Of a stretch of DNA of 40,210 bases, positions 24,843 to 39,971 are shown one piece after another. Under the pieces are notes generated by a model, which was not told where the DNA came from, made no database searches, and saw only the letters and a program-made list of their open reading frames with translations. The DNA is taken from the sequence record LR745709, one strand, 5' to 3'. Position 1 is the stretch's first letter. Each line of letters begins with the position of its first letter. The DNA comes from Escherichia phage T7. Made by a program: the position numbers and the translations under genes.

Positions 24843-27227
24843 ATGGCACTCATTAGCCAATCAATCAAGAACTTGAAGGGTGGTATCAGCCAACAGCCTG
24901 ACATCCTTCGTTATCCAGACCAAGGGTCACGCCAAGTTAACGGTTGGTCTTCGGAGACCGAGGGCCTCCAAAAGCGTCCACCTCTTGTTTTCTTAAATAC
25001 ACTTGGAGACAACGGTGCGTTAGGTCAAGCTCCGTACATCCACCTGATTAACCGAGATGAGCACGAACAGTATTACGCTGTGTTCACTGGTAGCGGAATC
25101 CGAGTGTTCGACCTTTCTGGTAACGAGAAGCAAGTTAGGTATCCTAACGGTTCCAACTACATCAAGACCGCTAATCCACGTAACGACCTGCGAATGGTTA
25201 CTGTAGCAGACTATACGTTCATCGTTAACCGTAACGTTGTTGCACAGAAGAACACAAAGTCTGTCAACTTACCGAATTACAACCCTAATCAAGACGGATT
25301 GATTAACGTTCGTGGTGGTCAGTATGGTAGGGAACTAATTGTACACATTAACGGTAAAGACGTTGCGAAGTATAAGATACCAGATGGTAGTCAACCTGAA
25401 CACGTAAACAATACGGATGCCCAATGGTTAGCTGAAGAGTTAGCCAAGCAGATGCGCACTAACTTGTCTGATTGGACTGTAAATGTAGGGCAAGGGTTCA
25501 TCCATGTGACCGCACCTAGTGGTCAACAGATTGACTCCTTCACGACTAAAGATGGCTACGCAGACCAGTTGATTAACCCTGTGACCCACTACGCTCAGTC
25601 GTTCTCTAAGCTGCCACCTAATGCTCCTAACGGCTACATGGTGAAAATCGTAGGGGACGCCTCTAAGTCTGCCGACCAGTATTACGTTCGGTATGACGCT
25701 GAGCGGAAAGTTTGGACTGAGACTTTAGGTTGGAACACTGAGGACCAAGTTCTATGGGAAACCATGCCACACGCTCTTGTGCGAGCCGCTGACGGTAATT
25801 TCGACTTCAAGTGGCTTGAGTGGTCTCCTAAGTCTTGTGGTGACGTTGACACCAACCCTTGGCCTTCTTTTGTTGGTTCAAGTATTAACGATGTGTTCTT
25901 CTTCCGTAACCGCTTAGGATTCCTTAGTGGGGAGAACATCATATTGAGTCGTACAGCCAAATACTTCAACTTCTACCCTGCGTCCATTGCGAACCTTAGT
26001 GATGACGACCCTATAGACGTAGCTGTGAGTACCAACCGAATGGCAATCCTTAAGTACGCCGTTCCGTTCTCAGAAGAGTTACTCATCTGGTCCGATGAAG
26101 CACAATTCGTCCTGACTGCCTCGGGTACTCTCACATCTAAGTCGGTTGAGTTGAACCTAACGACCCAGTTTGACGTACAGGACCGAGCGAGACCTTTTGG
26201 GATTGGGCGTAATGTCTACTTTGCTAGTCCGAGGTCCAGCTTCACGTCCATCCACAGGTACTACGCTGTGCAGGATGTCAGTTCCGTTAAGAATGCTGAG
26301 GACATTACATCACACGTTCCTAACTACATCCCTAATGGTGTGTTCAGTATTTGCGGAAGTGGTACGGAAAACTTCTGTTCGGTACTATCTCACGGGGACC
26401 CTAGTAAAATCTTCATGTACAAATTCCTGTACCTGAACGAAGAGTTAAGGCAACAGTCGTGGTCTCATTGGGACTTTGGGGAAAACGTACAGGTTCTAGC
26501 TTGTCAGAGTATCAGCTCAGATATGTATGTGATTCTTCGCAATGAGTTCAATACGTTCCTAGCTAGAATCTCTTTCACTAAGAACGCCATTGACTTACAG
26601 GGAGAACCCTATCGTGCCTTTATGGACATGAAGATTCGATACACGATTCCTAGTGGAACATACAACGATGACACATTCACTACCTCTATTCATATTCCAA
26701 CAATTTATGGTGCAAACTTCGGGAGGGGCAAAATCACTGTATTGGAGCCTGATGGTAAGATAACCGTGTTTGAGCAACCTACGGCTGGGTGGAATAGCGA
26801 CCCTTGGCTGAGACTCAGCGGTAACTTGGAGGGACGCATGGTGTACATTGGGTTCAACATTAACTTCGTATATGAGTTCTCTAAGTTCCTCATCAAGCAG
26901 ACTGCCGACGACGGGTCTACCTCCACGGAAGACATTGGGCGCTTACAGTTACGCCGAGCGTGGGTTAACTACGAGAACTCTGGTACGTTTGACATTTATG
27001 TTGAGAACCAATCGTCTAACTGGAAGTACACAATGGCTGGTGCCCGATTAGGCTCTAACACTCTGAGGGCTGGGAGACTGAACTTAGGGACCGGACAATA
27101 TCGATTCCCTGTGGTTGGTAACGCCAAGTTCAACACTGTATACATCTTGTCAGATGAGACTACCCCTCTGAACATCATTGGGTGTGGCTGGGAAGGTAAC
27201 TACTTACGGAGAAGTTCCGGTATTTAA
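24843..27227 (+). CDS. 12: Gene 12, tail tubular protein B (nozzle, 794 aa)
   Basis: ORF MALISQSIKNLKGGISQQPDILRYPDQGSRQVNGW... preceded by taaggaggctc. Confidence 0.97.
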   Translation: MALISQSIKNLKGGISQQPDILRYPDQGSRQVNGWSSETEGLQKRPPLVFLNTLGDNGALGQAPYIHLINRDEHEQYYAVFTGSGIRVFDLSGNEKQVRYPNGSNYIKTANPRNDLRMVTVADYTFIVNRNVVAQKNTKSVNLPNYNPNQDGLINVRGGQYGRELIVHINGKDVAKYKIPDGSQPEHVNNTDAQWLAEELAKQMRTNLSDWTVNVGQGFIHVTAPSGQQIDSFTTKDGYADQLINPVTHYAQSFSKLPPNAPNGYMVKIVGDASKSADQYYVRYDAERKVWTETLGWNTEDQVLWETMPHALVRAADGNFDFKWLEWSPKSCGDVDTNPWPSFVGSSINDVFFFRNRLGFLSGENIILSRTAKYFNFYPASIANLSDDDPIDVAVSTNRMAILKYAVPFSEELLIWSDEAQFVLTASGTLTSKSVELNLTTQFDVQDRARPFGIGRNVYFASPRSSFTSIHRYYAVQDVSSVKNAEDITSHVPNYIPNGVFSICGSGTENFCSVLSHGDPSKIFMYKFLYLNEELRQQSWSHWDFGENVQVLACQSISSDMYVILRNEFNTFLARISFTKNAIDLQGEPYRAFMDMKIRYTIPSGTYNDDTFTTSIHIPTIYGANFGRGKITVLEPDGKITVFEQPTAGWNSDPWLRLSGNLEGRMVYIGFNINFVYEFSKFLIKQTADDGSTSTEDIGRLQLRRAWVNYENSGTFDIYVENQSSNWKYTMAGARLGSNTLRAGRLNLGTGQYRFPVVGNAKFNTVYILSDETTPLNIIGCGWEGNYLRRSSGI

Positions 27228-34624: not shown

Positions 34625-36280
34625 ATGGCTAACGTAATTAAAACCGTTTTGACTTACCAGTTAGATGGCTCCAATCGTGATTTTAATATCCCGTTTGAGT
34701 ATCTAGCCCGTAAGTTCGTAGTGGTAACTCTTATTGGTGTAGACCGAAAGGTCCTTACGATTAATACAGACTATCGCTTTGCTACACGTACTACTATCTC
34801 TCTGACAAAGGCTTGGGGTCCAGCCGATGGCTACACGACCATCGAGTTACGTCGAGTAACCTCCACTACCGACCGATTGGTTGACTTTACGGATGGTTCA
34901 ATCCTCCGCGCGTATGACCTTCACGTCGCTCAGATTCAAACGATGCACGTAGCGGAAGAGGCCCGTGACCTCACTGCGGATACTATCGGTGTCAATAACG
35001 ATGGTCACTTGGATGCTCGTGGTCGTCGAATTGTGAACCTAGCGAACGCCGTGGATGACCGCGATGCTGTTCCGTTTGGTCAACTAAAGACCATGAACCA
35101 GAACTCATGGCAAGCACGTAATGAAGCCTTACAGTTCCGTAATGAGGCTGAGACTTTCAGAAACCAAGCGGAGGGCTTTAAGAACGAGTCCAGTACCAAC
35201 GCTACGAACACAAAGCAGTGGCGCGATGAGACCAAGGGTTTCCGAGACGAAGCCAAGCGGTTCAAGAATACGGCTGGTCAATACGCTACATCTGCTGGGA
35301 ACTCTGCTTCCGCTGCGCATCAATCTGAGGTAAACGCTGAGAACTCTGCCACAGCATCCGCTAACTCTGCTCATTTGGCAGAACAGCAAGCAGACCGTGC
35401 GGAACGTGAGGCAGACAAGCTGGAAAATTACAATGGATTGGCTGGTGCAATTGATAAGGTAGATGGAACCAATGTGTACTGGAAAGGAAATATTCACGCT
35501 AACGGGCGCCTTTACATGACCACAAACGGTTTTGACTGTGGCCAGTATCAACAGTTCTTTGGTGGTGTCACTAATCGTTACTCTGTCATGGAGTGGGGAG
35601 ATGAGAACGGATGGCTGATGTATGTTCAACGTAGAGAGTGGACAACAGCGATAGGCGGTAACATCCAGTTAGTAGTAAACGGACAGATCATCACCCAAGG
35701 TGGAGCCATGACCGGTCAGCTAAAATTGCAGAATGGGCATGTTCTTCAATTAGAGTCCGCATCCGACAAGGCGCACTATATTCTATCTAAAGATGGTAAC
35801 AGGAATAACTGGTACATTGGTAGAGGGTCAGATAACAACAATGACTGTACCTTCCACTCCTATGTACATGGTACGACCTTAACACTCAAGCAGGACTATG
35901 CAGTAGTTAACAAACACTTCCACGTAGGTCAGGCCGTTGTGGCCACTGATGGTAATATTCAAGGTACTAAGTGGGGAGGTAAATGGCTGGATGCTTACCT
36001 ACGTGACAGCTTCGTTGCGAAGAGCTCTGGTTGGACTGAGGTATGGCAAGGCTCTGCTGGTGGTGGTGTTTCAGTAAGCCTCTCACAGGATGTCCGCTGG
36101 AGAACTATCTGGATTCTAGCTAATAATGGCATGTGTTCTGTTCAGATTGGAGCTGATGCTACTTACTTCATGGTGGTTATGGGTGGTTGGTTGAAGTTCA
36201 CAATTTCCAACAACGGGAGAACTTTCCGTAACGACCAAGATCGAAATACAGTACCTAAGCAAATCTTAGTTCGAAACTAA
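34625..36280 (+). CDS. 17: Gene 17, tail fibre protein (551 aa): T7-type N-terminus and shaft with a divergent C-terminal receptor-binding tip
   Basis: MANVIKTVLTYQLDGSNRDFNIPFEYLARKF... through ...GGKWLDAYLRDSFVAKS is T7 gp17. From about residue 468 the sequence (SGWTEVWQGSAGGGVSVSLSQDVRWRTIWILANNGMCSVQIGADATYFMVVMGGWLKFTISNNGRTFRNDQDRNTVPKQILVRN) departs from the T7 tip as I recall it, and the gene is 2 codons shorter. Confidence 0.93.
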   Translation: MANVIKTVLTYQLDGSNRDFNIPFEYLARKFVVVTLIGVDRKVLTINTDYRFATRTTISLTKAWGPADGYTTIELRRVTSTTDRLVDFTDGSILRAYDLHVAQIQTMHVAEEARDLTADTIGVNNDGHLDARGRRIVNLANAVDDRDAVPFGQLKTMNQNSWQARNEALQFRNEAETFRNQAEGFKNESSTNATNTKQWRDETKGFRDEAKRFKNTAGQYATSAGNSASAAHQSEVNAENSATASANSAHLAEQQADRAEREADKLENYNGLAGAIDKVDGTNVYWKGNIHANGRLYMTTNGFDCGQYQQFFGGVTNRYSVMEWGDENGWLMYVQRREWTTAIGGNIQLVVNGQIITQGGAMTGQLKLQNGHVLQLESASDKAHYILSKDGNRNNWYIGRGSDNNNDCTFHSYVHGTTLTLKQDYAVVNKHFHVGQAVVATDGNIQGTKWGGKWLDAYLRDSFVAKSSGWTEVWQGSAGGGVSVSLSQDVRWRTIWILANNGMCSVQIGADATYFMVVMGGWLKFTISNNGRTFRNDQDRNTVPKQILVRN

Positions 36281-36385
36281 CTTCGGGGCGCGCGGCGTCT
36301 GTGACCACCTGATTCTTGAGTAGCGGGGCCGAAAGGCCCCGCCAAGGCAACCGACGGAACGGCCACACGATTAAGGAGGTAACCC
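36281..36385 (+). other. Inserted GC-rich linker with GNRA-capped hairpin and strong RBS, upstream of trxA
   Basis: Perfect 8-bp stem gcggggcc-gaaa-ggccccgc (36323-36342) with no U-tract, then ttaaggaggtaaccc-ATG. About 65-70% GC versus about 48% for the phage. Not part of the wild-type 17/17.5 intergenic region. Confidence 0.8.
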
Positions 36386-36718
36386 ATGAGCGATAAAATC
36401 ATTCACCTGACCGATGACTCTTTTGATACCGACGTGCTGAAAGCTGATGGTGCAATTCTGGTTGATTTCTGGGCAGAGTGGTGCGGCCCTTGCAAAATGA
36501 TCGCTCCAATCCTGGACGAAATTGCGGACGAATATCAGGGTAAGCTGACTGTGGCCAAACTGAACATTGACCAGAACCCTGGCACCGCACCGAAATACGG
36601 TATCCGTGGCATCCCAACTCTGCTGCTGTTCAAAAACGGTGAAGTGGCAGCAACCAAAGTAGGCGCTCTGTCTAAAGGCCAACTGAAAGAGTTCCTGGAC
36701 GCCAACCTGGCTTAATGA
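36386..36718 (+). CDS. trxA: Thioredoxin 1 (109 aa), identical in protein to E. coli TrxA, ending in tandem stops TAA TGA; inserted cargo gene
   Basis: [109 protein letters not shown], with the WCGPC active site. Sits between gene 17 and gene 17.5, where T7 has no gene. Confidence 0.97.
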
Positions 36719-36776
36719 TTGGTAAATCACAAGGAAAGACGTGTAGTCCACGGATGGACTCTCAAGGAGGTACAAG

Positions 36777-36980
36777 GTGCTATCATTAGACTTTAACAAC
36801 GAATTGATTAAGGCTGCTCCAATTGTTGGGACGGGTGTAGCAGATGTTAGTGCTCGACTGTTCTTTGGGTTAAGCCTTAACGAATGGTTCTACGTTGCTG
36901 CTATCGCCTACACAGTGGTTCAGATTGGTGCCAAGGTAGTCGATAAGATGATTGACTGGAAGAAAGCCAATAAGGAGTGA
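36777..36980 (+). CDS. 17.5: Gene 17.5, class II holin (67 aa), GTG start
   Basis: MLSLDFNNELIKAAPIVGTGVADVSARLFFGLSLNEWFYVAAIAYTVVQIGAKVVDKMIDWKKANKE, preceded by caaggaggtacaag. Confidence 0.9.
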   Translation: MLSLDFNNELIKAAPIVGTGVADVSARLFFGLSLNEWFYVAAIAYTVVQIGAKVVDKMIDWKKANKE

Positions 36981-39667: not shown

Positions 39668-39821
39668 GGAGGGACGAAAGGTTACTATATAGATACTGAA
39701 TGAATACTTATAGAGTGCATAAAGTATGCATAATGGTGTACCTAGAGTGACCTCTAAGAATGGTGATTATATTGTATTAGTATCACCTTAACTTAAGGAC
39801 CAACATAAAGGGAGGAGACTC

Positions 39822-39971
39822 ATGTTCCGCTTATTGTTGAACCTACTGCGGCATAGAGTCACCTACCGATTTCTTGTGGTACTTTGTGCTGCCCTTGGGT
39901 ACGCATCTCTTACTGGAGACCTCAGTTCACTGGAGTCTGTCGTTTGCTCTATACTCACTTGTAGCGATTAG
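39822..39971 (+). CDS. 19.5: Gene 19.5, small hydrophobic protein (49 aa)
   Basis: ATG at 39822 after aaagggaggagactc. MFRLLLNLLRHRVTYRFLVVLCAALGYASLTGDLSSLESVVCSILTCSD. Confidence 0.7.
   Translation: MFRLLLNLLRHRVTYRFLVVLCAALGYASLTGDLSSLESVVCSILTCSD

Follow-up and report, generated by a model that had tools for sequence, protein, structure and literature searches.

Gene 17, which encodes the tail fibre protein gp17, is chimeric in the DNA analyzed here (the window, 40,210 nucleotides, sequence record LR745709): its attachment, shaft and pyramid domains are those of phage T7, and its tip is foreign. The window is almost certainly the genome of the engineered T7 derivative phPM, described by Grigonyte et al. 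2020 (Viruses 12:193; PMC7077284; project PRJEB35760) in a study that used trxA for positive selection and reported eight tail-fibre mutants with one T7/Yep-phi fusion. That publication thus already covers the chimera, with its design and basic phenotype, and the protein is public.

The 551-amino-acid open reading frame at 34625..36280 (+ strand) is gene 17. When it was compared by megablast with 50,697 phage records, T7 matched at 99.9% identity but over query bases 1 to 1398 or 1399 only, and within nucleotides 1-1398 there are two base differences from reference T7 (NC_001604), 34922 A>C and 34976 A>G. Over residues 1-466, therefore, the N-terminal attachment domain and shaft are homologous to those of T7, as in a T7-type (Studiervirinae) gp17 tail fibre. 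Sharp divergence of the DNA from T7 begins at nucleotide 1399 of the gene, window position 36023, which is in codon 467. An earlier note on this DNA had placed the departure of gp17 from T7 near residue 468, with 36026 as its start, and the first amino acid that differs is indeed residue 468, at exactly that nucleotide; the DNA junction itself, between 36022 and 36023, is 3 bases further upstream because Ser467 is common to T7 and Yep-phi. Judging from a structural model in which a short linker helix spans residues 455-463, the junction after Lys466 would be at the end of this helix, where the pyramid domain is linked to the tip.

A search for the donor and the exact junction, as the earlier note had proposed, identified gene 17 of Yersinia phage Yep-phi, described as a Y. 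pestis phage (PMC7077284), and the fusion point just given. With the last 264 bases of the gene as query, the phage collection yielded Yep-phi (HQ333270 / NC_023715) and YepMm at 99.6% identity, followed by Berlin (98.8%) and by a group of phages of Y. pestis (about 97%). The segment that starts with codon 467 agrees at 256 of 258 nucleotides with the final 85 codons and stop of Yep-phi gene 17, the two differences being 36257 G>A, which changes Glu to Lys at residue 545, and the substitution of TAA for TAG as stop codon. In comparison with the Yep-phi tail fibre protein (ADQ83192.1 / YP_009014859.1; Berlinvirus), the last 85 residues are identical except for this E to K change, and the first 484 have been swapped for T7 residues 1-466, and beyond the N-terminal attachment domain the two proteins are mostly dissimilar.

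In a global alignment with the T7 tip 45 of 87 columns are identical (52%); the tip has 85 residues against 87 in T7, and the whole protein 551 amino acids against 553. The earlier note had estimated that about half of the tip positions differ and that the protein is 2 residues shorter, and both estimates agree with the measured values. The T7 tip sequence on which the note based this comparison equals the reference, and an error in it is therefore rejected. The codons AGA (2), CGA (2), CTA (1) and TTA (1) are all found in the tip segment, as had been stated. The reading attached to them, that of a natural homologue and not a designed sequence, is right for the donor segment, which is Yep-phi gene 17 in its own codons, but does not extend to the chimera, which is a designed construct. 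The features of the region are collected in Table 1.

Table 1. Features of the chimeric gene 17 region and the substitutions outside the design, in window coordinates
Feature	Position	Strand	Basis or remark
gp12 (tail tubular protein B) I400M	26042 A>G	+	SNV of Table S6
T7 gene 17 codons 1-466: attachment domain, shaft, pyramid domain, linker	34625..36022	+	T7-identical except N100H, T118A
gp17 N100H, tail-attachment domain	34922 A>C	+	private to this phage
Yep-phi gene 17 codons 485-569, beta-sandwich tip (chimera residues 467-551)	36023..36277	+	99.6% to HQ333270; same limits in Table S4 row 8, PMC7077284
gp17 E545K (GAG to AAG), tip	36257 G>A	+	natural Yep-phi and g-block both GAG
Stop TAA, design change (natural Yep-phi stop is TAG)	36278..36280	+	base comparison and supplement primers
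Verbatim Bordetella phage BPP-1 mtd 3' end and downstream sequence, 80 nt	36281..36360	+	sequence match
GC-only 14-mer	36284-36297	+	BPP-1 match; roles from PMC3240598
21-bp VR-type IMH, 5 mismatches to TR copy	36298-36318	+	BPP-1 match; roles from PMC3240598
8-bp GC stem with GAAA loop	36323-36342	+	BPP-1 match; roles from PMC3240598
Synthetic spacer, 25 nt, with RBS AAGGAGG (36373-36379) for trxA	36361..36385	+	sequence read
trxA (E. coli thioredoxin), positive-selection marker, 109 codons	36386..36715	+	protein is E. coli TrxA
Second stop TGA after trxA	36716-36718	+	sequence
T7 resumes: homology arm HR2 (TTGGTAAATCAC...), then gene 17.5 (holin) at 36777-36980	36719..36980	+	100% to LR745710 from 36286; HR2 in supplement

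The identification with phPM draws on several features of the published record. Row 8 of Table S4 (PMC7077284) gives for phPM a fusion of gp17 1-466 (nucleotides 1-1398) to Yep-phi gp17 485-569 (nucleotides 1455-1707), plasmid pAG32 and trxA behind, and the window contains precisely this fusion of gp17 nucleotides 1-1398 to Yep-phi nucleotides 1455-1707, with a synthetic trxA behind it and T7 resuming at HR2. A single SNV is listed for phPM in Table S6 of the same paper, 26041 A G I>M, and the window has A>G at 26042, giving gp12 I400M; the numbering of this assembly is that of V01146 plus one base, which explains the offset. The Yep-phi and trxA g-blocks of Figure S7 match the window except at 36257 and for single-base dropouts that arise from reading of the PDF. 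Outside the 695-nt cassette just two bases (26042 A>G and 34922 A>C) differ from the laboratory wild type LR745710. The exact 551-amino-acid protein is in public databases as CAA6799917.1 / A0A679KLY7, under the name T7 tail fiber protein, and its accession belongs to one block with the accessions of sister records; no contig encoding this exact protein is on record. Among the sister records, LR745706, LR745707 and LR745708 derive from T7 and share with the window the trxA gene and its location, the right-hand junction and the gp17(1-466) design; two are annotated 'chimaeric tail fibre created from fusion of T7 tail fibre (gp17 amino acids 1-466) and BPP1 tail fibre'. The T7 part, the marker and the IMH/hairpin block are common to the window and to LR745707/LR745708 (gp17(1-466)::BPP-1 Mtd plus trxA), but the latter carry a C-type-lectin Mtd domain, not a gp17-type tip, and are non-infective (PMC7077284). 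Of the 160-bp terminal repeat of T7 the window has one copy only (positions 1-160, compared with 39778-39937 of NC_001604), and the assembly of the laboratory wild type likewise has one; the single copy is a matter of assembly convention, with no deletion involved.

According to the published design, homologous recombination with plasmid pAG32, through two T7 homology arms, swapped codons 467-553 and the stop codon for a cassette that has, in order, Yep-phi codons 485-569 with TAA, the BPP-1 IMH/hairpin, an RBS and recoded trxA. Growth of T7 depends on host thioredoxin (PMC7077284, citing earlier work), and a 10^10-fold reduction in plating on a trxA-deleted host was measured in the same paper; such a host therefore selects recombinants. 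At the DNA level the marker is 86% identical to the trxA of each of the 5374 matched E. coli genomes, its 46 differences being distributed over 45 of the 109 codons, nearly all of them at third positions and synonymous; the recoding marks the gene as synthetic. It is identical to the trxA of LR745706/07/08, and its leader differs from the leader in the sister constructs. The RBS named in the supplement is B0034 (AAAGAGGAGAAA), a motif that is absent from the cassette, where the actual site is AAGGAGG. At the right-hand junction T7 restarts at the base after the former gene 17 stop and is 100% identical from there to the end of the window.

The block between the tip and the marker comprises the last 43 nt of BPP-1 mtd and then the hairpin region; within it the start of the next BPP-1 gene (avd/bbp7) appears to read ACG and not ATG, the match over the last 7 nt being tentative. 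The 14-mer, the IMH and the hairpin together make up the whole cis signal that, as Guo et al. 2011 (PMC3240598) showed, suffices for targeting of a heterologous gene by the BPP-1 retroelement. As in a DGR target, the IMH and the GAAA hairpin are at the 3' end (36284-36342): the 14-mer, the IMH (5 mismatches) and the GAAA stem are shared with the variable-region target of the BPP-1 DGR at native spacing, and in both cases a receptor-binding gene has them at its 3' end. The window has a single occurrence of the GC 14-mer. Table S3 (PMC7077284) contains Gibson primers linking the stop codon of the tip to the BPP-1 block, and primers dedicated to this join mean that the placement of the block was deliberate. 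The main text of PMC7077284 nowhere mentions IMH, hairpin or DGR, an intent of retroelement-driven diversification is not described in the paper, and a literature search for later papers on retroelement-targeted T7 fibres found none on this construct. The block has the look of a landing pad through which a retroelement could diversify the tip. On its own it is inert, because the window, which outside the cassette is 100% T7, has no cognate template repeat, reverse transcriptase or Avd. The single tip change at 36257, G>A, differs in this one sequence from the A-to-N signature of a DGR.

A less elaborate role for the block, as a transcription terminator or a stabilizer of the gene 17 message with no retroelement function, is unlikely, though a strong 8-bp GC stem immediately 3' of a stop codon would suit it. 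No T-run follows the hairpin and a terminator scan gave no sites, and on these grounds the hairpin is rejected as an intrinsic terminator; moreover, transcription of trxA has to cross it. A terminator would also have no use for the 14-bp and 21-bp IMH elements that this verbatim BPP-1 block contains. In the sister constructs it is the natural end of mtd, and in phPM it may have been carried over from a shared backbone despite the dedicated primers.

The sequenced genome is not exactly the design, since N100H is missing from Table S6 and E545K from the g-block. Set against phPM as published, the design is identical and the sequence additionally has gp17 N100H and E545K, and AAGGAGG instead of B0034 as RBS. 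The unplanned substitutions in 40 kb number three, all missense and all in gp12 or gp17, genes that constitute 10% of the genome (post-hoc probability about 0.001), and compensatory selection behind them is plausible. Natural records include no tip identical to that of the window, the best being 98.8% (one residue off), and none with Lys at the position of residue 545. The counterpart of this residue in T7 is N546, which immediately follows the HI loop; the change adds positive charge beside that loop and may be adaptive for binding of E. coli LPS. In the phage collection the C allele at 34922 is in no other record, the laboratory wild type LR745710 and the sister constructs included, and gp12 I400M is likewise in no other record of the collection.

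The SNV sites are referred to in PMC7077284 as non-essential regions, yet gene 12 encodes a tail protein. SNVs of sister phages are also in gene 12 (24876) and in gene 7.3 (19560), and this distribution of SNVs across the phages is a hint that the adsorption apparatus was repeatedly under selection. The other difference from reference T7 in the 5' part of gene 17, 34976 A>G or T118A, is already present in the laboratory wild type LR745710 and in LR745707, while in LR745708 the residue is Thr as in the reference; this points either to a heterogeneous stock or to recombination of the LR745708 phage with the wild-type gene 17 of the helper plasmid.

The departures from the design could also be accounted for if the window came from a descendant or sibling of phPM, a passaged stock or a better-growing variant that gained N100H and E545K later, and the omission of the one from Table S6 and of the other from the g-block, together with the concentration of all three missense changes in a tenth of the genome, is what this would lead one to expect. 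It is nonetheless very improbable, as the deposited chimeric protein already has H100 and K545 and the changes are therefore in the deposited phage; SNV calling in the paper took wild-type T7 as its reference, with the result that a change inside the foreign tip was uncallable, though this leaves the omission of N100H unexplained. It is scarcely conceivable that the fibre is instead a natural mosaic, formed when a T7-like phage gained a Berlinvirus (Yep-phi-like) tip by recombination in the wild, although tail-fibre tips are known recombination modules and the donor segment retains natural codons and almost the exact sequence of a natural phage. The phage-only flanks that such an origin needs are replaced by a BPP-1 fragment and recoded E. 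coli trxA directly 3' of the tip with sharp designed borders, the remainder of the genome is 100% laboratory T7, and the 30 nt upstream of the junction are unrelated between Yep-phi and T7 and offer no similarity to support recombination. PMC7077284 itself gives the junction as well as the g-blocks, and the recoded trxA and the match to the published design already refute a natural origin.

With phPM as the preferred identification, the question of how the T7 fibre accommodates its foreign tip can be approached from the tip sequence. Comparison by phmmer with the solved T7 tip (NP_042005; 4A0T/4A0U) gave E = 1.6e-92 over residues 371-551, an alignment that spans the tip, and the homology to the solved structure (4A0T residues 465-553) includes the hydrophobic core. 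Huss et al. 2021 (PMC8043750), who subjected this T7 domain to deep mutational scanning, distinguished as intolerant 11 core, 5 salt-bridge and 4 glycine positions. The chimera keeps 19 of these 20 positions, in contrast to 26 of the 67 elsewhere in the tip (Fisher p = 4e-6): the core is intact (11/11), as are the critical glycines (4/4), and four of the five salt-bridge positions are retained, the sole altered position being R508, which is Gln. The suggestion that the conserved positions represent a structural framework is supported by these counts, and the retention of 19 of 20 framework positions would explain how a tip of 52% identity can fold on the T7 stalk. The fold family, as judged by sequence, is the same as that of the T7 gp17 tip, and the tips are 48% different, with a one-residue deletion at K498, absence of the C-terminal Glu and a strand E that is wholly different.

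The distribution of the substitutions between strands and loops was assessed with a single-sequence AlphaFold model of residues 371-551, the homologue search having returned one 80-amino-acid fragment. The mean pLDDT of the model is 37, too low for a usable 3D structure, and just its strand positions were used; its eight strands are consistent with every loop/strand label for named residues in PMC8043750. By this low-confidence assignment (pLDDT 37) 23 of 34 loop positions are kept relative to T7 and 18 of 45 strand positions, which goes against the proposal in the earlier note that substitutions cluster in loop-like stretches. On the same model strand assignment, the BC loop (GSAGGG) is fully retained (6/6), the DE loop (ANN) and FG loop (GGWL) each differ at one position (3/4 and 4/5 kept), the HI loop keeps 3/8 and strand E 0/6. 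The substitutions would thus appear, tentatively, to be mainly on strand faces and in one exterior loop (HI), with BC, DE and FG, three of the four exterior loops, probably nearly T7-identical. Among the host-specificity residues of Huss et al. (PMC8043750), G479, N501, D540 and V544 are kept; D520 is changed to Met and the Arg542 'hook' is shifted (S541R, R542N).

With the junction after Lys466, the fibre keeps the attachment domain, shaft and pyramid domain of T7 and presents the beta-sandwich tip of Yep-phi. Retention of the 11 core residues, the four glycines and four of the five salt bridges would permit the foreign tip to fold and trimerize on the T7 stalk, and the three of four host-facing loops that are predicted to be almost unchanged may account for adsorption to the LPS of E. 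coli K-12. Help in designing the fusions is credited by the authors of the construct to M. J. van Raaij, the solver of the T7 tip structure (PMC7077284). The hybrid plaques on a trxA-deleted E. coli BW25113, which is indirect evidence that its fibre trimerizes and binds the host receptor, and T7/Yep-phi is the only one among the fusions to infect E. coli; the published phenotype of the hybrid is limited to this retained ability to infect E. coli (PMC7077284). A joint reading, in which the hybrid functions on E. coli by virtue of E545K, N100H and I400M as compensatory adaptations and the IMH/hairpin was placed to make the tip a synthetic variable region, can be offered as a speculative possibility, and is more probably wrong than right.

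As the construct has been in print since 2020 with its design and basic phenotype, and its protein can be found in public databases, the discovery value is small. For phage engineers, a possible need for E545K, N100H and gp12 I400M in the hybrid could be of interest, as could any function in T7 of the putative retroelement landing pad. For the fibre itself, the meaning is that the T7 tail fibre accepts a tip of 52% identity when the exchange falls precisely on the boundary between linker and tip and the core residues are kept.
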